Source: an uncultured bacterium | GTDB taxonomy: Bacteria; Bacillota_I; Bacilli_A; RF39; UBA660 | NCBI GenBank assembly: GCA_937863745.1 | Contig: CALMHN010000068.1 | Span: forward strand, 1-49,493 | Length of the DNA stretch: 49,493 bases | Direction: 5' to 3' | Shown: positions 5,043-44,503 of the stretch, piece by piece | How positions within the stretch are numbered: the first letter of the stretch is position 1 | Layout: each line of letters opens with the position of its first letter | Notes under the pieces: model-generated | What the model was told of the DNA's origin: nothing | The model's database searches: none | Seen by the model: only the letters and a program-made list of their open reading frames with translations | Position numbers and translations under genes: made by a program

Positions 5043-5789
5043 TTAAATGTCAAAGAGATTATGAACGTTTTCCTCAGTAATTTGGCCAATTTCTTCAAGC
5101 GTTTTACCTTTTAAATCTGCTAAAAATTCTGCAATGATTTTTATGTTTTTAGGTTCATTAGTTTGTCCCCTTAAAGGTGTTGGCGCTAGGAATGGAGAAT
5201 CGGTTTCTAAAATAATTCTATCCAAAGGTAATTCTTTGATAACGTTTTTTATCTTAGCATTAGTAAATGTCATTACACCACCTATACCAAAGTAAAATCC
5301 CATATCCGTTAAAATATTAGCTGTTTCAAGTGATCCACTAAAACAATGAATTACTCCTTTTACATTATGCTTCTTTAATGTTTCAATAGTATCTTCCGTT
5401 GCATCTCTCATATGAACTACAACAGGAAACTTATATTGTTCAGCAAGAGACAATTGATAATCAAATAAGGCTAATTGCTTATTCTTATTTGTAGGATTAC
5501 TATAATCTAATCCTATTTCACCAATGGCAATAAACTTATTGTTAGTTATATTGGATTCCACTATTTTTTTAAATTTTGATTTGCTATCTTTATAATTTTC
5601 TGGAAATATACCTAAGCAGGCATAAACATTATCATATTTATTTCCTAATTCAATAACTTCGTCACATGATTTTAAATCATCAGCTGCAACTAATATTTTA
5701 TTTATTCCGTTTTCATTTGCTCGCTTTATTACGGATTCTATATCTTCATAATACTCTTTATATAAATGAGCATGTGTATCTGTAAACAT
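5043..5789 (-). CDS. tatD: TatD-family metal-dependent DNase/hydrolase
   Basis: FTDTHAHL start, GEIGLDY, HMRDA, HCFSG and ETDSPFL motifs. Confidence 0.9.
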   Translation of the reverse strand: MFTDTHAHLYKEYYEDIESVIKRANENGINKILVAADDLKSCDEVIELGNKYDNVYACLGIFPENYKDSKSKFKKIVESNITNNKFIAIGEIGLDYSNPTNKNKQLALFDYQLSLAEQYKFPVVVHMRDATEDTIETLKKHNVKGVIHCFSGSLETANILTDMGFYFGIGGVMTFTNAKIKNVIKELPLDRIILETDSPFLAPTPLRGQTNEPKNIKIIAEFLADLKGKTLEEIGQITEENVHNLFDI

Positions 5790-12828: not shown

Positions 12829-14415
12829 CTATTCTATATTTATATTTTTATCGCCAAACAATTCTTTGGCTTCCGTAACAAACGTATTATCTTTATTAAT
12901 AAATTCTTCTTCCTCCATGATTGTATATTGTTTATTTTTATCAAATGTTTTTAACAATTTCTTCCAATCATTTTCTGAAATAAAAATTAATTCATAATTT
13001 TTATTAAACTTCTTAGAAAATTTATTTTCAATAAAATACAACTTAGCATTTAATATTACTTTGGTACTTTCGCTTTTTACAACAATAATAGCGTTTTTTT
13101 CCGATGCCACCATTGGAATGCTATCACGAGTTACTGCTAAAATATCTCGGATGTCTTCTTCCTTAATGTATTTTATAAAATCATTCCAAGTATTAATAAA
13201 GTCTTGTTTAATGTTTTTAGATGCATTTACAAAGGAATTATTTATTCTAACATTTATAAATTCATCACACATTTTGTAATAATTATCGCTTTTATTGTCC
13301 TTAATCATTTTGTTTACGTCAATTTTAGTGTCAAGTTGAATTATTTCCCGGGAAATAATTTGATTTATTTCTCTATTTGAAATTTTATTTTCATCATCAT
13401 TTATAAATGATATTAACTCTATTTGTAATAATAAATAGCCATTTAAGCCATCATTTAGCTTTTCTTCAATTTCATTTAATGATTTTATTATATTTTTTAA
13501 TTGATTAAATGCGTTATTACTAATGTTTTTTCTTTTAATTTGAATTGCTTTATTTAAGAAGTTATCTATTAGTTTATCAATCAATACTTTTATATTAACT
13601 CCCGATGCCTTTATTTCGCTTATTTTATCAATTAGCGTATCTAAGTCATTATGAAGTATTGCTGTATAAATTATATCAATATCATAATCAGTGACTGTTC
13701 CATAGTTTTGTTTAAGAATATCGACCGTGACAACATCAGCTGCTTTAGATAACTGATCAAGTACGCTTAAAGCATCACGCATACAACCATCTGATATGTT
13801 GCTTATTTCTTTTATTGCATCTTCTTCATATTTAATATTTTCTTTTTCACATATTTTTTCTAGATGTTTAGTTATTTCATCCTTATTTATTCTACAAAAG
13901 TCAAAACGTTGACATCTAGATAATATAGTAAGAGGAACCTTTTGAATCTCAGTTGTTGCTAAAATAAAAATAACATTTTCTGGTGGTTCTTCAAGTGTTT
14001 TAAGAAATGCGTTCCAGGCTGATGATGAAAGCATATGTGCTTCATCAATTATGTATATTTTATATTTGCTCATTGCTGGGGCTACTTGAACGCCATCAAT
14101 TATTAGACGCATATTATCAACACCATTGTTACTGGCTGCATCAAGCTCTATAATATCTGGATTATTATTAAAGTTTTTGCAGTTATCACATTTCTCGCAT
14201 GGAATTCCATTAGTAGAATTGGTACAGTTTAATGCTTTTGCAAAAAGTTTTGCCGTGCTTGTCTTGCCCGTTCCTCTTGGGCCTGTAAATAAATATGCAT
14301 GGGCTATTTTGTTTTCAATAATAGAGTTTTTAAGTATTTTAATAATGTGTTCTTGGCCTATTAATTCGTCAAAATTATTCGGTCTATATTTTCTGTATAA
14401 TACTTTATAATTCAT
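12829..14415 (-). CDS. dnaX: DNA polymerase III tau/gamma subunit
   Basis: Walker A GPRGTGKTS, zinc module CEKCDNC, DEAHML and SRCQRF motifs. Confidence 0.95.
   Translation of the reverse strand: MNYKVLYRKYRPNNFDELIGQEHIIKILKNSIIENKIAHAYLFTGPRGTGKTSTAKLFAKALNCTNSTNGIPCEKCDNCKNFNNNPDIIELDAASNNGVDNMRLIIDGVQVAPAMSKYKIYIIDEAHMLSSSAWNAFLKTLEEPPENVIFILATTEIQKVPLTILSRCQRFDFCRINKDEITKHLEKICEKENIKYEEDAIKEISNISDGCMRDALSVLDQLSKAADVVTVDILKQNYGTVTDYDIDIIYTAILHNDLDTLIDKISEIKASGVNIKVLIDKLIDNFLNKAIQIKRKNISNNAFNQLKNIIKSLNEIEEKLNDGLNGYLLLQIELISFINDDENKISNREINQIISREIIQLDTKIDVNKMIKDNKSDNYYKMCDEFINVRINNSFVNASKNIKQDFINTWNDFIKYIKEEDIRDILAVTRDSIPMVASEKNAIIVVKSESTKVILNAKLYFIENKFSKKFNKNYELIFISENDWKKLLKTFDKNKQYTIMEEEEFINKDNTFVTEAKELFGDKNINIE
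13339..13360. promoter_or_regulatory. perfect 22-bp palindrome containing the Noc-binding-site consensus ATTTCCCGGGAAAT
   Basis: AATTATTTCCCGGGAAATAATT read directly. The core at 13343-13356 equals the NBS consensus described for B. subtilis Noc. It lies inside the dnaX coding sequence. Confidence 0.55.
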
Positions 14416-14875: not shown

Positions 14876-14895
14876 TTTATTTCCTCATAAAAAAA

Positions 14896-14966
14896 GCGCA
14901 CACGATCAGGGATTAACGTGGCTGCTACATTCCTGTCCTGACCAGTTTATAATATAATCGTTGCGC
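14896..14966 (-). ncRNA. ffs: small (4.5S-type) signal recognition particle RNA
   Basis: Minus strand GCGCAACGAT...GGTCAGGACAGGAATGTAGCAGCCACG...ATCGTGTGCGC. Closing helix, GGAA tetraloop and the AGCAGCC domain-IV motif. Followed by a T-run and preceded by a strong promoter. Confidence 0.8.
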
Positions 14967-14972
14967 ATTTAA

Positions 14973-15000
14973 ATTATATCACATTTAAACTATGAATCAA
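14973..15000 (-). promoter_or_regulatory. promoter of the SRP RNA gene
   Basis: Minus strand TTGATT-16 bp-TATAAT with TGA immediately upstream (extended -10). -10 ends 6 nt before G14966. Confidence 0.6.
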
Positions 15001-15064
15001 TAATTTTGTTTATTTTTAACTTTTTTAATGTTTAAGTAACGTATTTTCGTAGCAAAATGGTTAA

Positions 15065-15080
15065 TGTTTCACGTGAAACA
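15065..15080. promoter_or_regulatory. parS: parS site 1 (perfect consensus)
   Basis: TGTTTCACGTGAAACA. The palindrome extends to 20 bp (15063-15082). Confidence 0.85.
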
Positions 15081-15194
15081 TTGTTTATAACTATTTATGT
15101 ACAAGTTATAACTATGCAGATATTATTTGATTATAAATAGTTATACTATTTTTTAAATTTTATTCATAATCATTGAAATCATATTTTTTTCTAC

Positions 15195-15216
15195 GCGCAG
15201 CTAATAATAGCTGCGC
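15195..15216 (+). terminator. GC-rich hairpin H1 (terminator-like on the plus strand)
   Basis: GCGCAGCTA-ATAA-TAGCTGCGC followed by TTATTTTATTT. Confidence 0.4.
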
Positions 15217-15286
15217 TTATTTTATTTATGCATTATTTTTTCAGATATTTTGTTAAGTCAACGTATTTACGTGTTAAAATGGTCAA

Positions 15287-15302
15287 TGTTTCACGTGAAA
15301 CA
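15287..15302. promoter_or_regulatory. parS: parS site 2 (perfect consensus)
   Basis: TGTTTCACGTGAAACA. 22-bp palindrome CAATGTTTCACGTGAAACATTG at 15284-15305. Confidence 0.85.
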
Positions 15303-15415
15303 TTGTTCATAACTATTATATTCATGTTTAATCTTATAAAAGATCCAATAATGTTGGATTCATTTTGAAAATTATTAATAAATGCTCCAATCAACTTTTT
15401 TGTCATAATTTCTAC

Positions 15416-15437
15416 GCGCAACTAAAAATAGTTGCGC
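15416..15437 (+). terminator. GC-rich hairpin H2
   Basis: GCGCAACTA-AAAA-TAGTTGCGC followed by TTATATTGTTTATT. Confidence 0.4.
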
Positions 15438-15503
15438 TTATATTGTTTATTCACTTTTTGATATTTCAGTTAATGCAACGCAATTACGTGCTAAAATGGT
15501 CAA

Positions 15504-15519
15504 TGTTTCACGTGAAACA
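15504..15519. promoter_or_regulatory. parS: parS site 3 (perfect consensus)
   Basis: TGTTTCACGTGAAACA. 22-bp palindrome at 15501-15522. Confidence 0.85.
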
Positions 15520-15691
15520 TTGTTTATAACTTCTTTACGAGCATTTGATTTTATAATAGAGATAATAATGTAAGATCTATTATTATTTTTTTAACTATTG
15601 TTTATTAAGCTACTCTATTAATATTATCTTTTCAATTTATATACCGTATATTAATTTAAGTTATATATCATAATCAGAGCAAAATTCTTAC

Positions 15692-15714
15692 GCGCAGCAA
15701 AATAATTGCTGCGC
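15692..15714 (+). terminator. GC-rich hairpin H3
   Basis: GCGCAGCAA-AATAA-TTGCTGCGC followed by TTTATAATCC. Confidence 0.4.
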
Positions 15715-15787
15715 TTTATAATCCAAACGTGTTAATTTTTTCGATTATCTTTAATAAAATAACGTAATTTCGTACCAAAACCACCAA

Positions 15788-15803
15788 TGTTTCACGTGAA
15801 ACA
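15788..15803. promoter_or_regulatory. parS: parS site 4 (perfect consensus)
   Basis: TGTTTCACGTGAAACA. 22-bp palindrome at 15785-15806. Confidence 0.85.
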
Positions 15804-15898
15804 TTGTTCATAACTATATATATAGGTAAATTGCATACTGTCTATATTGTATCTATTTATTATTTAAATCATGTTATATATTTAATCATATTTCTTAC

Positions 15899-15921
15899 GC
15901 GCAGCAAATTAATTGCTGCGC
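15899..15921 (+). terminator. GC-rich hairpin H4
   Basis: GCGCAGCAA-ATTAA-TTGCTGCGC. The downstream tract is less U-rich than for the other hairpins. Confidence 0.35.
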
Positions 15922-15994
15922 TCTACAATATATATTTGTTAATTGTTTGGATTGTTTTTAATAAGATAACGTAATTACGTACTAAAATGGTCAA

Positions 15995-16010
15995 TGTTTC
16001 ACGTGAAACA
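15995..16010. promoter_or_regulatory. parS: parS site 5 (perfect consensus)
   Basis: TGTTTCACGTGAAACA. 22-bp palindrome at 15992-16013. Preceded by the perfect dyad ACGTAATTACGT at 15969-15980. Confidence 0.85.
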
Positions 16011-16134
16011 TTGTTTATAACGTCGTTACGAACGTTTCATTTAATAATAGAGATAATAATATTAGATATTTTATTTAATTTATATATTGTTTATGAATTT
16101 AAGTAATATGTCATAATCAGAGTAAAATTCTTAC

Positions 16135-16157
16135 GCGCAGCAAAACAATTGCTGCGC
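16135..16157 (+). terminator. GC-rich hairpin H5
   Basis: GCGCAGCAA-AACAA-TTGCTGCGC followed by TTTATAATCC. Confidence 0.4.
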
Positions 16158-16230
16158 TTTATAATCCAAATGTGTTAATTTTTTTGATTATTTTTTATAA
16201 GGTAACGTAATTTCATACCAAAACCGCCAA

Positions 16231-16246
16231 TGTTTCACGTGAAACA
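16231..16246. promoter_or_regulatory. parS: parS site 6 (perfect consensus)
   Basis: TGTTTCACGTGAAACA. 22-bp palindrome at 16228-16249. Confidence 0.85.
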
Positions 16247-16395
16247 TTGTTCATAACTATTTACAAACGACTATAAGTTATCATTTGTATTAATAATTAT
16301 CATTGTCTAATTCATTATATTAATAACATAATGCTATTATTAATATAATCAAAGAATCATATACATGTAACGTATTTACGTGTTAAAAAGGTCAA

Positions 16396-16411
16396 TGTTT
16401 CACGTGAAACA
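16396..16411. promoter_or_regulatory. parS: parS site 7 (perfect consensus)
   Basis: TGTTTCACGTGAAACA. 18-bp palindrome at 16395-16412, directly abutting the gyrA terminator. Confidence 0.85.
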
Positions 16412-16412
16412 T

Positions 16413-16436
16413 AAAAAAAGAAGCTTATTAAGCTTC
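16413..16436 (-). terminator. gyrA intrinsic terminator
   Basis: Minus strand GAAGCTTAATAAGCTTC followed by TTTTTTT. The stem overlaps the gyrA stop codon. Confidence 0.7.
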
Positions 16437-19067
16437 TTCAATAACATCTGAATTATTAACTTCATCGTCATTATTTTGTTGATCAATTGAATCATCATTT
16501 TCTAATTCGTCTACTATACTTATTGTAGATACATATTGATCATCTTTTACATTCATTAATTTAACACCTTGAGTTACTCTACTTAATTGAGATATTTGGT
16601 TAACAGGTATTCTTATAATCATTCCTGATTCAGTAATAATTAATAAGTCTTTATCATCTGTAACTATTTTATGACCGATCATCATACCATTTTTCTCAGT
16701 TATTTTAAGGGCTAATACGCCTTTACTTCCACGTTTAGTCTCTCTATATTCACTTACTAGTGTTCTCTTACCATATCCGTTCTTAGATACTATTAATAGG
16801 TTGTCATCGCTTCTACCAACTTCCATACCAGTACAAATTGCACCGTCTAGATTGATTCCTCTGACTCCTGTTGCAGTTCTTCCCATTGGTCTAACTTCTG
16901 ACTCATCAAAAATTGCCATCTTACCTGATGTTGCTCCCATGATTACTTTCATGTTTCCATCAGTTAATTTAACATCTATTAATTCATCATCATCTCTTAA
17001 TGTAATAGCTATCTTACCAGATTTTCTAATATTCATATATTCTTCATTAGCTGTTTTCTTTATTATTCCATTCTTTGTTGCAAATATAGTATATTTCAAA
17101 TCATTATTGGCTGATACATCAAGTATTGCACTAACTTTCTCATCCTTTTCAATTTGAATAAGATTAATAATTGGCAATCCCTTAGCAGTTCTGCTATATT
17201 CAGGAATTTCATATCCTTTTAATCTATATATCTTACCTTTATTTGTAAATATGCAGATATAATCATGTGTTGATGAATTAATCAAGAATTTTACGTAATC
17301 TTCTTCGTTTGTTGACATTCCCTTTACACCAACACCGCCTCTGTTTTGAGTTTTATAAGTATCAGCATTTAATCTCTTAATATACCCTTTATCAGTAAGT
17401 GTTATTATGATATTTTCTTCAGGAATTAATGACTCGTCCTCAATATAATCAATTGCTGTCATATCAATATAAGTTCTTCTTTCATCACCATATTTATTGG
17501 CAATTTCAAGTAATTCGTTTTTAATAATTTCGCATACTTTCGCATCAGAATTTAATATTTCATTGTATTCAGCTATAAGTTTCATTAACATATCTTTTTC
17601 TTCTAGTAATTTATCTAGTTCAAGACCAGTTAACTTTCTTAATCTCATTTGAAGAATATCTGTAGCTTGAATATCATCTAATCCATATTTTTCTTCTAAT
17701 CTTTGTTTTGCTATTATTTCGGTTCTAGATCCTCTTATTATCTTAACAAAATCATCAATATTATTAATGGCTGTTATTTGACCATCAATGATATGTACTC
17801 TTTTTTCAGCTTCAGCTAAGTCGTATCTTGTTCTTCTAATAATTACTTCTTTTTGATAATCAACATATTTAGTTAAAATATCTTTTAATCCTAATGTTTT
17901 AGGTATTCCTTGATCAAGCATTAATAAGTTAATACCATATGTAATTTGTAATGGCGTTTTCTTATATAAATTGTTTAATACAACATTTGGATTTGCTTCT
18001 TTTTTAAGAGTAACAACGATTTTAATACCATTTTCAATGTTTGTTTCTTCATGTAAGTCTGATATTCCATCTAATTGTTTATCTCTTACTAATTCTGCTA
18101 TTTTTTGTTGGAATTCCTTCTTATTTACTCCATAAGGTATTTCAGTAATTACTATTAAATTTTTATTTGCATGTTCTTCAATAGCAACTTTACCTCTTAA
18201 AGTAATTGTACCTTTTCCTGTTTCATAAGCCCTAGTAATACCAGAGTTGCCAAGAATTACGGCACCTGTTGGGAAATCTGGACCTTTAATATATTGCATT
18301 AATTCAGGTAATTCTATATCATGATTATCAATTACAGCAATACATCCATTTACTACTTCTTTTAAATTATGAGGTGGTATGTTTGTTGCCATACCTACTG
18401 CAATTCCCATTGTTCCATTTACTAGAATATTAGGAAATCTACTTGGTAAAACAACTGGTTCTTTAGCTGTAGCATCAAAGTTATCACTAAAATCTACTGT
18501 ATCTTTTTTAATATCTCTTAACATTTCTAGAGAAATTTTTGATAATCTAGCTTCAGTATAACGCATGGCTGCTGCACCATCGCCATCCATTGATCCAAAG
18601 TTACCATGTCCTTCAATTAGTGGTGCACGATAACTAAAGTCTTGGGCCATCCTAACCATTGCATCATATATTGATGAATCGCCATGTGGATGGTATTTAC
18701 CCATTACATTACCAACTGTAGTAGCTGATTTTCTAAAAGGTTTATCTGGTGTAATACCACTTTCATACATTGAATATAATATTCTTCTATGAACTGGTTT
18801 TAAACCATCCCTTAAATCTGGTAAGGCACGAGCAACGATAACACTCATGGAATAATCCAAGAATGAATCTTTTATTTCTTTTACAATATCATTTTGTAAT
18901 ATTTCGCCTTTTGGTAAACTATCATCTTCATTATTTGATTCTGATGAATCATCCTCTATATTTTCAGGATTAACATCTTCAAAGTTTTCAACATCTTCTG
19001 GTGTTTCTTCTTCAATATTATCTAATTCGTCATTATCATCATAACTATCTATATTATTATCTTCCAT
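16428..19067 (-). CDS. gyrA: DNA gyrase subunit A
   Basis: 879 aa. [16 protein letters not shown], active-site region AAMRYTE, GyrA-box/beta-pinwheel C-terminal domain, acidic N- and C-terminal tails. Confidence 0.96.
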
Positions 19068-22184: not shown

Positions 22185-22213
22185 AAAAACACAAAAACAT
22201 GAGTTTTACTCAT
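22185..22213 (-). terminator. terminator after the ComK-like gene
   Basis: Minus strand ATGAGTAAAACTCAT followed by GTTTTTGTGTTTTT. The stem includes the stop codon. Confidence 0.5.
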
Positions 22214-22655
22214 ATTTTCTTACTATTTTTGATCCTAATCTAGTTGCTCTTAATACTTGGTTATTTAAAATGTTCTTTGATACATCTATTTCAATACTAG
22301 TATTATTAATAAATTTTATAATACTTATATTTTTACTATTGTCAAATGTATAATTATCTATATTATTAAGACTTAACCATGAACATTCTTTCAACCTTGG
22401 ACTAGATGTAGGAAAAAATATTATATTTTCTTTGTCGGCAATACAAATTGGTGCTTTATAAGTATATCCTGTTAATTGCTCAGTTCCCTTTATTCTTCCA
22501 TCAAAACTACTTCCATGATACATACAATTTCTTTTAATTATATTATTTGGTTTCTTATTTACTATAATAACGTTATTATGTTCATATACTAATGAATTAT
22601 GAATACCAAATGGTAAAATTGCTAATGTTTTATCTGTAATTATGTAATCTTTCAT
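22206..22655 (-). CDS. comK: ComK-family protein (short form)
   Basis: Aligns by eye to B. subtilis ComK. TLAILPF matches ATIAVLPE, and RNCMYHGSSFDGRIKGT matches RSCRFFGSSYAGRKAGT. IFFPTSSPRLKECSWLS matches IFLFPTLSSTRPQCGWIS, and NNQVLRATRL matches ENQVYRTAWL. It lacks the C-terminal ~40 aa of ComK. Confidence 0.6.
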   Translation of the reverse strand: MKDYIITDKTLAILPFGIHNSLVYEHNNVIIVNKKPNNIIKRNCMYHGSSFDGRIKGTEQLTGYTYKAPICIADKENIIFFPTSSPRLKECSWLSLNNIDNYTFDNSKNISIIKFINNTSIEIDVSKNILNNQVLRATRLGSKIVRKYE

Positions 22656-24034: not shown

Positions 24035-25417
24035 TTAACTTATTATTTTTTCTTTAATTTCTTTAATTTGTTTTCTTATATCTTCACTTGTTTTATATTC
24101 TTCTTCTATTTTATCACATGAATGAAGTACTGTTGCATGGTCTCGATTGAATTCCAAGCCTATTCTTTGAATTGTTTCATCCGTTGTCATTTTACATATA
24201 TACATGGCTATTTGCCTTGCATTGTTAATATTTGCTGTCCTTTTTTTACTTTTAAGGGCATCTTCCGTTATATCATAGTATTCAGCTACTGCTTTGATAA
24301 TCTTTGCTATATTATTGGTTAAATACATAGTACTTGTTAAGATATCTTTTAAAGCATCTTTAGCAAATTCTAGATTAATTCTAGGTGGTTTATATATTGT
24401 ATAGTAAGCAGTAAGTCTTAAAATTGATGATTCTAGGTGTCTTACATCTGAATCTAAGTTGTTTGCAACGTATTCTAGGACATCATCATCCGTTAGCCTT
24501 GATATTTCTTGACCTGCTATTTTATTTTTTAATATATTTAATCTTAATTCATAGTCAGGAGGCATGATATTTACACTTAGTCCCCAGGCAAATCTCGTTC
24601 TTAAACGTAATTCTAGGACCTTAAGGTCATCTGGAGATCTATCTGATGATATTATTATTTGTTTATTTAAATCATGTAAGAAATTAAATGTTTCAAAGAA
24701 CTCACTTTGAGTTTGATTTGCACCACCTAATTGTTGAATATCATCGATTATTAGGACATCTATATTACGATATTTATCTTTAAAATGTTTAACTAAATCT
24801 AAATTATCTTCGTTGGCTCCTCGCCTACTTATATCCGTAAAATCGGTAATAAATTGTTCACTTCTTATATATAGAACAGATTTATTACTATTATCTACTA
24901 TATAATTACCTATGGCATTCATAAGATGTGTTTTTCCTAATCCACTTCTACCATATATAAATAAAGGATTATAGATAGTTCCTGGGTGTTCCGCAACTTG
25001 TAGAGCTACTGTTTGCGCTAATCTATTTGAATCCCCTACTACAAAATTATCAAAAGTTAGGTCTTTTTTTAGATTACTATTGGCATTTTTATATTCTAAC
25101 TCATCAATATTATCTATAGTATCGTCTATATTGTTGATAATTGGGGACTTTTGAACATTATTGTCTTTAATTTCTGATGGTGTAATCACTTCTATTAAAT
25201 ATTCTTTGTTTGTTATGGCTTTTGCAGCCTCTTCCATTAGATCCATGTAATATTCTTTTACATAATCTTTATAATAAGTGGATTCAACTTCTAAAGTAAT
25301 TGTATCTTCCGTTTTTTCGTGTAATTTGGCGTTTTTAAACCAGGTATTGAATGACATACTGGTCAATTTGTCGCTTATATAACTAATAAATTCGTCCCAA
25401 AAAGAATCGTTACTCAT
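24035..25417 (-). CDS. dnaA: chromosomal replication initiator DnaA
   Basis: 460 aa. Walker A GRSGLGKTHL, IDDIQ, the sensor region, and C-terminal domain IV DHATVLH. Confidence 0.97.
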   Translation of the reverse strand: MSNDSFWDEFISYISDKLTSMSFNTWFKNAKLHEKTEDTITLEVESTYYKDYVKEYYMDLMEEAAKAITNKEYLIEVITPSEIKDNNVQKSPIINNIDDTIDNIDELEYKNANSNLKKDLTFDNFVVGDSNRLAQTVALQVAEHPGTIYNPLFIYGRSGLGKTHLMNAIGNYIVDNSNKSVLYIRSEQFITDFTDISRRGANEDNLDLVKHFKDKYRNIDVLIIDDIQQLGGANQTQSEFFETFNFLHDLNKQIIISSDRSPDDLKVLELRLRTRFAWGLSVNIMPPDYELRLNILKNKIAGQEISRLTDDDVLEYVANNLDSDVRHLESSILRLTAYYTIYKPPRINLEFAKDALKDILTSTMYLTNNIAKIIKAVAEYYDITEDALKSKKRTANINNARQIAMYICKMTTDETIQRIGLEFNRDHATVLHSCDKIEEEYKTSEDIRKQIKEIKEKIIS

Positions 25418-25464
25418 CCAATCACCCCGTCCAAGTTTTAACTAATTAAATAATAAATCATAAA

Positions 25465-25650
25465 TGTTGAAAAATAAAGAAAATTAGTATGTTAAAAAGT
25501 TTTCCATAAGTTATTAACTAATTTATCAACAAGTTATTGCCTATAATAACGCACTTTGTTAGGGTTTTCAACGTTTTCAACAAATTTTTATTAATTGTTA
25601 TAAAATTGTCAACAGTAATTATCAACAATTAACGTTGAAAGTGTTCACAA
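25465..25650. promoter_or_regulatory. oriC: DnaA-box cluster upstream of dnaA (oriC, rpmH-dnaA spacer)
   Basis: TTATCAACA at 25523-25531 and 25619-25627. TTTTCCATA at 25500-25508, TTTTCAACA at 25574-25582, TTGTCAACA at 25606-25614, and TGTTGAAAA (reverse complement TTTTCAACA) at about 25465. All are within 1-2 mismatches of TTATCCACA. Confidence 0.6.
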
Positions 25651-25683
25651 ATATAAATATGTACGTATTTACGTTATTTTTAG

Positions 25684-25712
25684 TTGACTTAAAATGTTCG
25701 TTATTATATAAT
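25684..25712 (+). promoter_or_regulatory. rpmH promoter
   Basis: TTGACT-17 bp-TATAAT. The dyad ACGTATTTACGT lies just upstream at 25663-25674. Confidence 0.65.
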
Positions 25713-25742
25713 ATCGTTACTTGAGATGTGGAGGTGTAACAA

Positions 25743-25865
25743 ATGAAAAGAACTTTTCAACCTAATAATAGAAAAATGGCTAAAAAACATGGTTTCTTTG
25801 CACGTAAAAATTCTAAAATTTTAAAATCAAGAAGAGCAAAAGGACGTAAGGTACTTTGCAAATAA
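25743..25865 (+). CDS. rpmH: 50S ribosomal protein L34
   Basis: Not in the ORF track (40 aa). Hand translation [48 protein letters not shown]. Confidence 0.92.
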
Positions 25866-25870
25866 AATAG

Positions 25871-25889
25871 CCACATATGTGGTTTTTTT
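25871..25889 (+). terminator. hairpin plus T-run after rpmH (partial terminator/attenuator)
   Basis: CCACATATGTGG followed by TTTTTTT. Confidence 0.55.
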
Positions 25890-31829: not shown

Positions 31830-32939
31830 ATGAAAATGGAAGCTCAAATTAGGTTAGTAAATGTTGAAGATATTATACCTAATAGGTTTCAACCACGTTT
31901 AGAGTTTGATCAAGATGCTTTAAAAGAATTGGCTGAGTCTATTAGAGTTCATGGTATTATTCAACCTTTAGTATTAAGACGTGTAAGTAATAAATTTGAA
32001 ATAATTGCAGGTGAAAGAAGATATAAGGCTTCACAAATGGTGGGACTTACTCAAGTTCCTGCTATTATATGTGCTTTAGATGATAATGAATCAGCTGAAG
32101 TTGCAATTATTGAAAATACTCATAGAAGAGATTTATCAGCTATTGAAGAAGCAACGTCATATAAGAAATTATTAGATAGACATTATTTAACTCAAGAACA
32201 GTTAGCTCAAAGGTTGGGTACATCTCAATCAACAATTGCTAATAAAATTCGTTTATTACAATTGGATGAAAGTGTTCAAGATGCTTTATTAAAAAATAAG
32301 ATAAGTGAAAGACATGCTAGGTCTTTACTTAGAGTTACGGATAAATTCAAACAAGTTGATTTGTTAAATAAAACTATTTCGGAAAAGTGGCCAGTTAAAA
32401 AACTAGATGAAGAAATAGATAAAGTAGTTGGAAGCTATAATAATAGTGCCTCAACTGGTGGTATAAATATTACTGATAATGGTGATATTCAAACAACTGG
32501 CGTTGATATAGGTGCAAATGAAAATACTGAATTATATCAGTATCATAGTAAGATTAATGATGACAATACTAAAAAATCATTATTCTTTAATAACCTTGAA
32601 GATGCTCCAGTTACGATGGATCCTACTTTAAACTTTGGTTTTAATCCATTTCAAACATCAAAACTTAATGAGGAATCAACAGGGATTTTAGATCTTGAAG
32701 ATGAAGAAGAAAGTATTGATGAAATAGATAAGACTGATAATAAAGACGATAAGGATAAAGTTAAAGAAGTCATTAAGGAAAAAGAATATAAAACTACTGA
32801 AGATTTAATTAATGGTATTAAAGATATGATAAATAATGCTCAATTAAATAATGTAGATTTTAAAAGTGAAGAATTTGATTTTGATAAAGTATATCAGTTT
32901 GTTATTAAAGTTAGTAAAGAAGATAAGAAAGAGGAATAG
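31830..32939 (+). CDS. noc: ParB-family protein, Noc-like (nucleoid-occlusion type), with a long low-complexity acidic insertion
   Basis: ParB N-domain IIPNRFQPR...GIIQPLV...IAGERRYKAS. The HTH LTQEQLAQRLGTSQSTIANKIRLLQL...KISERHARSL is nearly identical to B. subtilis Noc ([26 protein letters not shown]...KITERHARAL). The C-terminal EEFDFDKVYQFVIKV resembles the Noc tail EEFEEYIQLTIRI. Confidence 0.8.
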   Translation: MKMEAQIRLVNVEDIIPNRFQPRLEFDQDALKELAESIRVHGIIQPLVLRRVSNKFEIIAGERRYKASQMVGLTQVPAIICALDDNESAEVAIIENTHRRDLSAIEEATSYKKLLDRHYLTQEQLAQRLGTSQSTIANKIRLLQLDESVQDALLKNKISERHARSLLRVTDKFKQVDLLNKTISEKWPVKKLDEEIDKVVGSYNNSASTGGINITDNGDIQTTGVDIGANENTELYQYHSKINDDNTKKSLFFNNLEDAPVTMDPTLNFGFNPFQTSKLNEESTGILDLEDEEESIDEIDKTDNKDDKDKVKEVIKEKEYKTTEDLINGIKDMINNAQLNNVDFKSEEFDFDKVYQFVIKVSKEDKKEE

Positions 32940-41359: not shown

Positions 41360-41480
41360 GTATATAATTCTATTTTTTTATTATGTGAATAAAGTGCTAT
41401 AAGAGTTTTTAAATATTGATGTTTATGAATTTTATAGATACAATATTTAATATACATAAGATTAGATGAGGATAACTATA

Positions 41481-43172
41481 ATGAATTATGAAACAATTTC
41501 AATAAGAGAAGTAATAAAATTAATTAATGAAAAAAGAATGTATTTACCGGAAATACAAAGAGGGTATGTTTGGAAGGAAAAACAAGTTGAAAAATTATTT
41601 GAATCAATATTTGTTGGTTATCCAATAGGTTCATTATTATTTTGGAAAACAAATAAGAGAGATATTAATAGCAATGGTCTTATTTTGTATGATTTTATTA
41701 AGGACTATCACGAGAGAGATGATAAGGATAATAAAAAAGCATCCGCTATTGCATCTGATTTTCCTGATTATTTTATAGTTTTAGATGGCCAACAACGATT
41801 ATCTGCATTATTTATTGGTTTGCAAGGATCTGTTGCTTATAAACTACCATATTTATGGTGGAGTTCCAACGATGCTTTTCCACAAAAAAAGTTATTTTTT
41901 AATCTTGATTCTAAAAGCCTTCAATTAGATGAAGATGATGATGATGAAAAAATTCCTATATTTAAGTTTTTTGAGATTGATAAAACAACTCCAGATAATA
42001 ATTGGTTCTTAGTCTCAGATATTTTAAAGTTTGAGCAACTTAGTGACATAATAGAGTATGCAACTGAGAACAATTTGAGTAAGGATAGAATTAATAACTT
42101 ATCAAAATTTTGGAATAATATAAATTTAAAAAATCCTCCTATAATTCATTATTTAACTATAGAAGGTGCTAACTATGATGATGTTTTAAATATATTTGTA
42201 CGTCTAAATTCAAGTGGTACTCCTTTATCAAAACCTGATTTACTGTTTTCAACTATGTTACTTGATTGGAATGGTGGAAGAGAGGTTATAGAAAAATTTA
42301 TTAAAAAAATAAATAATAAGGGTTCCAAATTTGATTTTACAAAAGACTTTATAATGAGAACTTGTCTTGTTTTATCTGGAGCCTCTGTTAGCATGAAGGT
42401 GGAGTCTTTTAAAAAAGAAAAAATATCATATATAAAGAACAATTTTTTTAGTATTTCTAAAGCTATTGAAGATGCTGTTGATTCACTTGTTGACTTAGGT
42501 TATTCAAATGACAATATGCTATCTTACAATGCTTTGATTCCTTACATTTATTATTTGTATAGGGGTGGATCATCAAAAGGAAACAGTGTTAATGGATTAA
42601 GAACTTATTTGGCAATTTCTTTTTTAAAGAATATTTATGGTGTAGCATCAAATTCTGCTTTATCTAATACAAGAAATGCTATTGATAAATATAATTGCAA
42701 AAAATTTGGATTTGATATTTCGATATTCGATAATGTTCATTTAGTTGGTGATAGAGAATTTAAAGTAACTAAAGATGATATAGATTCTTATATGGATAAA
42801 GAAAAAGGATTGTATACTTTTTACATATTAACTTTATTATATCCAAATTTAAAATTGGGACAAATTAAGTTTCATCAAGACCATGTTCATCCATATATTT
42901 CTTTTGATGAATTAGATAGTAAAAAATTGACTAATGAGCAAATTGAAAAATGGAAAAGAATGAGAAATACTTTGCCTAACTTACAATTACTTGAAGGGTC
43001 AGACAACGAATCTAAAAATAGAGAATCTTTAACAGAATGGGTAAAAGCGGGAAACGTTGTTGAATATAGTGATAATAAAGAATCTACCGATTTATATAAT
43101 TTTGAAAATTATTATAATGCTAGAAAGGAAAAAATTATAAATAAATTATTGAAAATTTTTAGTTTAAAATGA
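41481..43172 (+). CDS. DUF262 plus DUF1524/HNH-like protein (GmrSD-family type IV restriction-like)
   Basis: N-terminal region LPEIQRGYVWKEKQVEKLFESIFVGYPIGSLLFWK and the DGQQRLS motif. C-terminal His-Me finger-like FHQDHVHP...NLQLLEGSDNESKN. Start set at the ATG at 41481 behind GAGGA. Confidence 0.75.
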   Translation: MNYETISIREVIKLINEKRMYLPEIQRGYVWKEKQVEKLFESIFVGYPIGSLLFWKTNKRDINSNGLILYDFIKDYHERDDKDNKKASAIASDFPDYFIVLDGQQRLSALFIGLQGSVAYKLPYLWWSSNDAFPQKKLFFNLDSKSLQLDEDDDDEKIPIFKFFEIDKTTPDNNWFLVSDILKFEQLSDIIEYATENNLSKDRINNLSKFWNNINLKNPPIIHYLTIEGANYDDVLNIFVRLNSSGTPLSKPDLLFSTMLLDWNGGREVIEKFIKKINNKGSKFDFTKDFIMRTCLVLSGASVSMKVESFKKEKISYIKNNFFSISKAIEDAVDSLVDLGYSNDNMLSYNALIPYIYYLYRGGSSKGNSVNGLRTYLAISFLKNIYGVASNSALSNTRNAIDKYNCKKFGFDISIFDNVHLVGDREFKVTKDDIDSYMDKEKGLYTFYILTLLYPNLKLGQIKFHQDHVHPYISFDELDSKKLTNEQIEKWKRMRNTLPNLQLLEGSDNESKNRESLTEWVKAGNVVEYSDNKESTDLYNFENYYNARKEKIINKLLKIFSLK

Positions 43173-43186
43173 TTAGAAAAAATTAA

Positions 43187-43206
43187 AAGAGATCATATGA
43201 TCTCTT
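43187..43206. terminator. bidirectional terminator shared by convergent genes
   Basis: 20-nt perfect palindrome AAGAGATCATATGATCTCTT, flanked by an A-run and a T-run. Confidence 0.6.
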
Positions 43207-44503
43207 ATTTTTTTAATTCATCAAACATTAATGCAACTGTTGGACTGTTTTTAGTTAATTTCTTTATTGATAAATCATCTGCTTTATTATTTGCTAATCT
43301 CAAATTATTATCGGCTTTAGTTAAATCTTCTTTTATTTTATTTAAGTGATCTATTGATTTATCTATTTCTTCTATAGCTTTACTAAAGCTATCACTTGCT
43401 AATTTATAATTTCTTGAGAATCCTTCTTTGAAGGTATTTATATTATCTTCAAAATGACTTATATCAATATTTTGATTCTTTTCAATTAACAATTGCTTCT
43501 TATATTGAATACTATTCTTGGCTGCATTAACTAGTAAGGTAATTATTGGTATAAAGAATTGAGGTCTAATAACAAACATCTTAGGATATTTATATGATAC
43601 ATCTACAATTCCTTGATTGTATAATTCTGAATCAGATTCTAGGGTTGTTACTAGTATTGCATACTCGCATGACTTTTCATTTCTATCTTTATCTAGTTCT
43701 TTGAAGAAATCTTCATTTTTGTGTTTAGTGCTAGTTAAATCAGCTTCATTTTTCATTTCAAACATTATTGAGATATATTCAATACCATCTTCTGTATCTC
43801 TAAATATGAAGTCCCCTTTAGATCCTGTTTTAGCATCATTATCTTTTTCAAAATAAGAATTTGGCCAAATAGGTCTTAATGTCATATTATAAGAATTACT
43901 ACAATGTTGTTCTAGGGTTTCACCAAGCATCTTTGTAGACATTCTTGTTTTTAAATCTTTATAATAATCTATTTGTTCGTCTTTTACTTTTAACTTATTA
44001 TCATAGTCAGTTTTAATACTTTGAACTTTTAGTTCTGATTCTTTACTATCTAAGGCAATAGTATTAGATAGTTCTTGAATCTTAGCATCTTTTTCATTTA
44101 TTTTATCTTTAAATTCATTTATAGAATTTTGAATTGCTAGAGCTTTTTCATTTTCAAAACCTGATATTTTATTTTGTAATTCATTAATAGTTTTAGTTAA
44201 TTCTTTTTCTTTTTCATTTAATGCTTTAGTAACTTCTAATTCGTTTTCTGTTTCTTTAGTTTTAAGTTTTGATTCTAATTCTAAGTTGGCTTTTTCTTTA
44301 ATTTTTATTTGTTCTTCGAATGATTCTTTTTGTTTATCTAATTCTTCTTTTATTTTAATTTCTAATTTTGAATTATATAATTCATCTCTTTTTTTAATTT
44401 CTTCTTCAAATTGATGGTCTCTTACTTGTTTAACGATATTTTCATATTGAGTTTCATCAATTGTGAATGTTTTTCCACAGTGGGGACATTTTATTTCGTT
44501 CAT
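43205..44503 (-). CDS. DUF2130-family protein: zinc ribbon, long coiled coil, PD-(D/E)xK-like C-terminal domain
   Basis: N-terminal MNEIKCPHCGKTFTIDETQY, about 170 aa of heptad-rich K/E sequence, then GSKGDFIFRD...ISIMFEMKNE (D...ExK-like). Confidence 0.65.
   Translation of the reverse strand: MNEIKCPHCGKTFTIDETQYENIVKQVRDHQFEEEIKKRDELYNSKLEIKIKEELDKQKESFEEQIKIKEKANLELESKLKTKETENELEVTKALNEKEKELTKTINELQNKISGFENEKALAIQNSINEFKDKINEKDAKIQELSNTIALDSKESELKVQSIKTDYDNKLKVKDEQIDYYKDLKTRMSTKMLGETLEQHCSNSYNMTLRPIWPNSYFEKDNDAKTGSKGDFIFRDTEDGIEYISIMFEMKNEADLTSTKHKNEDFFKELDKDRNEKSCEYAILVTTLESDSELYNQGIVDVSYKYPKMFVIRPQFFIPIITLLVNAAKNSIQYKKQLLIEKNQNIDISHFEDNINTFKEGFSRNYKLASDSFSKAIEEIDKSIDHLNKIKEDLTKADNNLRLANNKADDLSIKKLTKNSPTVALMFDELKK

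Follow-up and report, generated by a model that had tools for sequence, protein, structure and literature searches.

Introduction

Most bacteria carry one or a few copies of parS, the chromosomal centromere site of ParB (Spo0J), and these copies are closely positioned or clustered, the scattered layout of Bacillus subtilis being an oddity (PMC8357415, PMC7022226 Table 1). Clustered sites number 22 in Myxococcus, 21 in Streptomyces and 10 in Corynebacterium (PMC7022226 Table 1), and the origin-proximal clusters of Caulobacter crescentus (5-7 sites), Myxococcus xanthus (22), Corynebacterium glutamicum (10) and Pseudomonas aeruginosa (parS1-4) act as zones of ParB nucleation and SMC loading (PMC7022226 Table 1, PMC5815017, PMC8357415). 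The described clusters span roughly 5-40 kb, often lie inside or between genes and are usually found beside parAB. Here we describe a locus of an uncultured bacterium (lineage Bacilli_A; RF39; UBA660; assembly GCA_937863745.1) that shares with these clusters the 16-bp consensus palindrome and the presence of several sites near the replication origin, oriC, but packs its seven sites into a 1.4-kb run of dedicated non-coding units, with no parAB nearby, between gyrA and the gene for the signal recognition particle (SRP) RNA, ffs. The array lies in contig CALMHN010000068.1, of which positions 1 to 49,493, the whole stretch of DNA that was analysed, are referred to as the window.

Two further groups of systems are relevant for comparison. 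In Staphylococcus aureus and Streptococcus pneumoniae, low-GC Gram-positive bacteria without ParA, the ParB-parS system mainly loads SMC (PMC7022226), and in S. aureus ParB and parS are accompanied by Noc but not by ParA (bioRxiv 10.64898/2026.03.06.710092). Their sites, five over ~400 kb in S. aureus and four in S. pneumoniae, differ in layout from those of the window, which are packed in one array. In B. subtilis, the ParB paralogue Noc requires an N-terminal amphipathic helix, and its Noc-binding sites (NBS) are scattered round the chromosome (PMC8429893, PMC4331003).

Results

Seven perfect parS sites between gyrA and ffs

The array fills the whole gyrA-ffs intergenic gap and contains seven exact copies of the 16-mer TGTTTCACGTGAAACA (Table 1). 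All seven match the 16-bp palindrome of chromosomal parS, TGTTNCACGTGAAACA, without mismatch and carry G at position 1 and A at position 6, as is typical of parS. We also considered an array of NBS and rejected it, since the NBS form TATTTCCCGGGAAATA needs A at position 1 and C at position 6. Dinucleotide-preserving shuffles, even with 2 mismatches tolerated, contain on average 0.03 matches to the 16-mer, and seven are reached in none of them. No further copy with up to 2 mismatches was found in the rest of the 49.5-kb window, and allowing 3 mismatches added only two matches (at 5322 and 14636), neither of which is CACGTG-centred. The 10 kb past either end of the window are likewise free of parS, so that no site lies outside the array across ~70 kb. 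The longest open reading frame (ORF) inside the interval encodes 62 amino acids, and Rfam searches of the array at gathering and permissive thresholds returned chance matches only (mir-363, SprD).

The array is located in the origin region. On the minus strand, the gene order is dnaA, dnaN, comK, recF, gyrB, gyrA, array, ffs, a tadA-like deaminase gene, dnaX, ybaB and recR, whereas rnpA through mnmE, mnmG and rsmG are encoded on the plus strand. The GC skew reverses its sign at about 25-26 kb, next to dnaA (24035-25417, minus strand), from which the array is separated by 7.6-10.4 kb. Matches to the DnaA box are not above chance, and the origin was thus located from gene order and GC skew alone.

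An earlier, sequence-only reading of this DNA had reported the seven exact sites, their extension to palindromes of 18-22 bp, five of them alike, the gene-free interval bounded by the gyrA terminator and the SRP-RNA promoter, the position beside oriC at about 9-10 kb from dnaA, and the lack of other CACGTG-centred parS-like sites in the window. Each of these statements was borne out by our analysis: five palindromes are the same 22-bp sequence CAATGTTTCACGTGAAACATTG, one is of 20 bp and one of 18 bp, and both boundary elements were recovered.

Selection acts on the palindromes

The units of the array consist, in order, of a 13-mer near-palindrome, AACGTAATTACGT, a 12-nt linker of either of two types (AAAATGGTC or AAAACCRCC), the parS palindrome, the motif TTYATAAC, an AT-rich spacer and, in units 1-5 only, a hairpin. 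Between units, mean pairwise identity is 100% for the palindrome (in all 15 unit pairs), 88% for the hairpin, 86% for the 13-mer, 67% for the linker and 53% for the spacer. The palindrome is thus invariant while the spacers drift, which indicates that selection acts on the site itself. Furthermore, a 190-nt stretch over units 3-4 is 91% identical to units 5-6, indicating that the array grew partly through a recent two-unit duplication. The description of the locus as a tandem array holds only in part: six units and a truncated seventh can be aligned, but the units are 165-284 bp long and so degenerate that Tandem Repeats Finder did not call the array.

Plasmid centromeres of the sopC type resemble the array in that many copies of one ParB-type palindrome are arranged as direct repeats in non-coding DNA. 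In the F plasmid, sopC comprises 12 tandem 43-bp repeats. The units of such plasmid arrays are short, near-identical and built of plasmid-specific sequence, and the arrays are accompanied by their own adjacent parAB (sopAB) operon, whereas the units described here are long and degenerate, contain the universal chromosomal consensus and have no par operon beside them. The suggestion that the locus is a plasmid-style iterated centromere was abandoned on these grounds, together with the 53% spacer identity, the gyrA and ffs flanks and the chromosomal synteny from dnaA to recR.

The position of the probable centromere is conserved across the clade

To compare related genomes, we used two scans. 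The first, of one genome per species, retrieved loci with two parS cores 206-236 bp apart (~220 bp) and yielded at least 120 loci from many phyla. At least 15 of these belong to low-GC metagenome-assembled genomes (MAGs) labelled 'Bacilli', 'Erysipelotrichaceae' or 'Tenericutes', whose gyrA DNA is 67-71% identical to that of the window; each carries 3-10 parS sites between gyrA and ffs/dnaX, at a spacing of ~35 to 240 bp, and their spacer sequences are unrelated. At NCBI, the label of the source is 'Bacilli bacterium' and that of a 62%-identical orthologue of one protein is 'Erysipelotrichales bacterium'.

The second scan, of metagenomes with the GyrA protein, added 80 relatives (59-68% amino-acid identity), 45 of which were informative, with at least 1.6 kb of sequence after gyrA. 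Among these 45 loci, at least two parS sites just after gyrA were found in 32, at least five in 16 and at least seven in 8. Over the 2 kb that follow gyrA, the density of perfect parS cores is 1.30 per kb, compared with 0.001 per kb in the remaining 719 kb of these loci. Comparison with related genomes had been recommended by the sequence-only reading, and it places an array at the same locus in dozens of relatives, with 2-10 copies. The sites are thus conserved under selection, and, given the concentration of parS after gyrA in both the genome and the metagenome relatives, the sequences indicate that the position of the centromere is a conserved trait of the whole clade and that copy number and spacing turn over rapidly. 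In one relative, a third type of palindrome, AGTTTCCGTGGAAACT (core CCGTGG), is located 17 nt after the last parS of the array (L065:2961-2976).

The array is at the dense end of a known range

The sequence-only reading had regarded the layout as exceptional among chromosomes, a view that did not survive comparison, because clustering is the norm in the literature and at least 14 of the 120 loci listed in the genome scan hold seven or more parS cores within 1.4 kb. Lachnospiraceae, Paceibacterota, Bdellovibrionales, gammaproteobacterial and actinobacterial genomes are represented among them. With seven sites in 1.4 kb, the array therefore stands at the dense end of the range; such a density is not rare in sequence databases, although no equally dense cluster was found in the literature on model organisms. 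As an origin-proximal parS cluster, the array belongs to a known class, of which it is a new and very compact member. Dedicated intergenic arrays with some 7-10 sites per kb are widespread in uncultured Bacilli, Clostridia, bacteria of the candidate phyla radiation and others, a density that is not conveyed by the 5-40-kb clusters of model organisms. The more useful result is the context, namely a clade whose centromere lies between gyrA and ffs, at a distance from any par genes, with a Noc paralogue lacking the membrane helix and with NBS among the parS sites (see below).

Very dense arrays, with 7-10 perfect cores at a spacing of 40-110 bp, also occur in unrelated lineages (L018:1015-1352, L039:1474-1841, L041:5385-5893, L120:7233-7955 and L094:2680-3275). 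They come from Lachnospiraceae, Paceibacterota, a gammaproteobacterial MAG and other Bacilli MAGs, and some have a canonical ParB gene (R/G, see below) within 1-2 kb.

The interval as a probable ParB loading site

We consider it likely that the interval is an origin-proximal chromosomal centromere, in which seven parS sites serve as nucleation sites for a canonical, Spo0J-type ParB. The identity of the sites to parS, their position, the selection acting on them and their conservation in the clade are directly established here. The sequence-only reading had proposed a hub for ParB nucleation and SMC loading. Since the sites are exact to the consensus, proximal to the origin, set in dedicated non-coding DNA and under selection, a multi-site ParB loading hub is indeed the best reading of the locus, and the SMC part of the proposal would follow by analogy with better-studied systems.

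If the established mechanism of ParB applies, dimers would bind each palindrome, bind cytidine triphosphate, close into clamps and slide onto the flanking DNA, and seven sites within 1.4 kb would constitute one high-flux loading point. A dense ParB complex over gyrA-ffs-dnaX, ~9 kb from oriC, would then load SMC-ScpAB. Clustered origin-proximal parS sites are known to load ParB and SMC (PMC8357415, PMC7022226), and tight clustering avoids the collisions of SMC provoked by widely spaced sites (PMC8357415). In vitro, ParB-dependent condensation rises with the number of parS copies; in that assay, 7, 13 or 26 copies condense and 1-4 do not (PMC8299390). The array itself probably grew as units of ~200 bp were multiplied, either through unequal recombination or through segmental duplication, with selection keeping the palindrome while the spacers drifted.

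Several observations weigh against this interpretation. Neither a canonical ParB (R173/G201) nor ParA was found in the window, where ORFs of at least 80 amino acids in the par and flank regions were searched, or in the 10 kb past each end. Both were also missing from the origin regions of two relatives and, by tblastn, from the 6 kb on either side of gyrA in the 80 metagenome relatives. Finally, ParB loading offers no explanation for the plus-strand hairpins or for the 13-mer that every unit conserves. As no parA lies near the origin, the system is probably ParB-only in the style of S. aureus and S. pneumoniae, and would serve to organise the origin and to load SMC, not to bring about ParA-dependent transport. 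The search covered the origin region, and, by analogy with S. aureus, the cognate parS-binding ParB is most likely encoded elsewhere on the chromosome. In S. aureus, noc adjoins rsmG, and parB is located elsewhere.

A Noc-type paralogue without a membrane helix

The sole ParB-family gene of the window (Table 1) has no parA adjacent to it. Among solved structures, its product is closest to Noc (206 bits with 7NG0/7NFU, 179 bits with 7OL9), followed by B. subtilis Spo0J (158 bits), and its best NCBIfam model is nucleoid_noc (277 bits, under the cut-off of 315). Alignment to the Noc structures 7NG0, 7NFU and 7OL9 identifies the specificity residues as Q133, K139, Q144 and R161, that is, Q-K-Q-R, to be compared with Q-K-K-R in Noc and R-x-x-G in ParB. 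The protein thus has the Noc-type residues Q173, K179/K184 and R201. Jalal et al. found that adenine 1 of the NBS is recognised by Q173 and cytosine 6 by R201, that one lysine at 179 or 184 is enough for binding and that, in deep mutational scanning, parS-specific variants always have R173 (PMC7383237). By this rule and from its Q-K-Q-R residues, the protein is predicted to bind NBS and not parS. The best 120 of 7983 homologues (E <= 1e-20) are all Q-K-x-R; they are full length (359-400 amino acids) and, apart from an identical top match, 55-66% identical. As a check of the rule, we inspected 56 ParB genes beside parS clusters in other phyla for which both positions were readable. All 56 encode R173 and G201, which indicates that parS clusters and canonical ParB travel together.

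The protein begins with MKMEAQIRLVNVEDIIPNRFQPR, and its residue 5-7 aligns to residue 26-30 of Noc, with no upstream start codon in the ORF. Helices alpha1 and alpha2 are absent, and with them the N-terminal amphipathic helix that targets Noc to the membrane. Judging from this architecture, the protein is not a classical Noc. It also contains a GERRYKA arginine patch, with K where ParB and Noc have R, and an acidic linker of ~110 residues with conserved FFNNLED and NFGFNPF motifs, which precedes a Noc-like C-terminal domain.

Noc-binding sites among the parS arrays

The window contains a single NBS, with the exact core ATTTCCCGGGAAAT, located ~3.1 kb downstream of gyrA; an NBS is found at a similar distance in several relatives (L029, L154, L168 and L169), and a subgroup of relatives has a second conserved NBS ~4.4 kb upstream of the gyrA end. 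In addition, relatives carry perfect NBS (TATTTCCCGGGAAATA) in or beside their parS arrays, in some cases strictly alternating with parS (TGTTTCACGTGAAAC[AT]). Five parS and five NBS alternate in L016 (21-361; unit of ~73 bp) and in L135 (144-436 nt after gyrA; 61 bp), five parS and four NBS in L177 (112-603 nt after gyrA; 119 bp), and three NBS and two parS in L184 (75-318 nt after gyrA; ~114 bp). Among the 45 informative metagenome loci, 25 have both types of site, 10 parS only, 5 NBS only and 5 neither. The 2 kb that follow gyrA contain 0.62 NBS per kb, compared with 0.032 per kb elsewhere in these loci (a ~20-fold difference), and a further 104 kb of origin-region sequence of the clade contain none.

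The situation resembles that of Noc and NBS in B. subtilis, in that the ParB-family protein of the window is closest to Noc, has Noc-type residues and is accompanied by exact NBS in the window and in relatives. It differs in that the protein lacks the helix, the NBS of the clade are concentrated beside parS arrays near oriC, and the sites of the array are parS. Given that the NBS of B. subtilis are described as scattered, the co-localisation of parS and NBS appears to be undescribed so far.

One could imagine that the Noc-type paralogue is the only ParB-family protein of the clade and reads both parS and NBS, the array being its loading site, and that there is no canonical ParB. No other ParB-family gene was found within ~35 kb of oriC here or in the origin regions of two relatives, the two types of site lie side by side, sometimes alternating, in relatives, and a protein without the membrane helix would be no classical Noc; however, the Q-K-Q-R residues of the paralogue, shared as Q-K-x-R by the best 120 homologues, include the Q173/R201 combination of NBS binders, whereas parS-specific variants always have R173 (PMC7383237). 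The sites themselves also fit two separate readers: the 312 distinct sites of the general form in the clade comprise 218 pure parS, 88 pure NBS, 6 partial variants and no parS/NBS chimeras. A single reader is therefore improbable. Two clean classes of sites argue for two readers with separate specificities, and hence for the existence of a canonical ParB in the clade.

With somewhat less than even confidence, we propose that the interval after gyrA is a composite centromere on which two paralogous CTP-dependent clamps load next to each other, with canonical ParB on parS and the helix-less Noc paralogue on NBS, of which the seven-site array, the NBS in dnaX and the Q-K-Q-R gene would be one instance. 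If so, Noc would have been re-purposed from nucleoid occlusion to the organisation of the origin region, or to the control of ParB spreading or SMC loading. Should both readers load there, the locus would offer a natural system for studying how two sliding-clamp paralogues share or partition DNA and how the function of Noc was rewired.

Hairpins, short reading frames and the 13-mer

The five GC-rich hairpins of the array look like intrinsic terminators of the plus strand, in an orientation opposite to that of every flanking gene. Within the window and among all same-species loci fetched, the hairpin is confined to this array, and it is absent from relatives. Speculatively, the hairpins might keep spurious transcripts that arise in the AT-rich spacers from running into the next parS.

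Four units have an ATG just ahead of the palindrome, which opens an ORF that begins with MVNVSRETLFIT (15057-15140, 15228-15368, 15496-15573 and 15987-16106). Three of these run for 25-39 amino acids from that ATG, and the fourth ATG sits within a longer ORF of 46 amino acids. The tails are hydrophobic and mutually unrelated, and all four ORFs stop before the hairpin. The shared start is merely the translated palindrome, and these ORFs, whose ATG is not preceded by a Shine-Dalgarno sequence, were rejected as genes.

In principle, each unit could nevertheless be a small plus-strand gene, for a small RNA or a hydrophobic peptide resembling type I toxins, that ends at the hairpin, with the palindrome as an operator or incidental. 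The number of plus-strand terminator-like hairpins (five, as opposed to 0.5 in shuffles), the compensatory changes at 2 of 9 stem pairs and the ATG-opened ORFs that end before the hairpin would be expected of such genes, but the peptide tails are not conserved between units, the frame is missing in units 4 and 6, no ribosome-binding site precedes the ATG, promoter-like matches are at background (23 as opposed to 21.7 in shuffles), and no Rfam family matches. Moreover, relatives retain parS and not the hairpins or ORFs. We therefore rejected tandem small-RNA or type I toxin genes as very improbable, and return to the centromere as the preferred reading.

Outside the array, three sites resembling the 13-mer with 1-2 mismatches were found, which is about chance level, one of them near oriC at 25662. 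The 13-mer was not seen in the arrays of relatives, and no known binding site was found to match it; it is unlike the ricS site of S. aureus, GTTTGTCTGAGGTTAGAC.

The same 1552-bp interval, with 1-2 single-nucleotide differences, is present in three other same-species assemblies (JGI 3300010340, NCBI MAG GCA_035349195.1 and ENA), so that the array is not an assembly artefact; window position 16246, the outermost base of parS 6, is A here and C in the three other assemblies (L121-L123). The origin of the sequence from a MAG and its repetitive, AT-rich, intergenic character might suggest some generic dispersed repeat, the remnant of a mobile element or an artefact, unrelated to segregation, but this reading is effectively refuted, as no palindrome, hairpin or unit copy lies elsewhere in ~70 kb, four independent assemblies agree with spacers unique enough to assemble, the gyrA-array-ffs-dnaX synteny is kept over the whole clade, and no transposase or integrase flanks the array.

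Features of the window

Table 1. Coordinates of the parS array, its components and associated features of the origin region (positions in the window)
Feature	Position	Strand	Remarks
Whole parS array	15038-16412	.	six degenerate units of 165-284 bp plus truncated seventh; delimited by repeat families D1-D4, unit alignment and segment identities
parS 1	15065-15080	.	20-bp palindrome AATGTTTCACGTGAAACATT
parS 2	15287-15302	.	22-bp palindrome CAATGTTTCACGTGAAACATTG, starting at 15284
parS 3	15504-15519	.	22-bp palindrome CAATGTTTCACGTGAAACATTG, starting at 15501
parS 4	15788-15803	.	22-bp palindrome CAATGTTTCACGTGAAACATTG, starting at 15785; B-type upstream linker AAAACCACC
parS 5	15995-16010	.	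22-bp palindrome CAATGTTTCACGTGAAACATTG, starting at 15992
parS 6	16231-16246	.	22-bp palindrome CAATGTTTCACGTGAAACATTG, starting at 16228
parS 7	16396-16411	.	18-bp palindrome; 5 nt from stem of gyrA terminator
13-mer near-palindrome AACGTAATTACGT, copy 1 of 7	15038-15050	+	all copies begin 27 nt ahead of the respective parS 16-mer
13-mer AACGTAATTACGT, copies 2-7	starts 15260, 15477, 15761, 15968, 16204, 16369		last copy ends at 16381
GC-rich hairpin 1 of 5	15195-15216	+	GCGCAGC-loop-GCTGCGC with T-rich tail
Hairpin 2	15416-15437	+	stem with compensatory change, G-C to A-T
Hairpin 3	15692-15714	+	
Hairpin 4	15899-15921	+	
Hairpin 5	16135-16157	+	
gyrA terminator-like hairpin	16417-16439	-	overlaps gyrA end; right boundary of array
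gyrA	16428-19067	-	flanking gene; adjacency to array kept in relatives
Promoter-like site for SRP RNA	14973-15000	-	TTGATT-16 nt-TG-TATAAT; left boundary of array
Small SRP RNA gene ffs	14887-14972	-	promoter directly upstream; adjoins array here and in 14 related genome loci
Exact NBS core ATTTCCCGGGAAAT	13343-13356	.	single NBS of window; inside dnaX, 1.7 kb from array
Noc-type paralogue gene	31830-32939	+	sole ParB-family gene of window; 369 amino acids; directly after rsmG
Presumed oriC	25418-25878	.	dnaA-rnpA intergenic region; gene orientation and GC skew flip

Other genes of the origin region and its surroundings

Between dnaN and recF, the window encodes a ComK-family protein (22206-22655), a placement that is kept in Erysipelotrichales-like relatives (L129:1-298 and L130:262-720). 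Relatives also carry spoIIR and spoIID nearby, and the clade may thus be capable of sporulation. Further along the window, a gene for a GmrSD-type restriction endonuclease with an N-terminal DUF262 domain adjoins a convergent DUF2130 gene (41466-44503), and the pair may constitute a small defence island.

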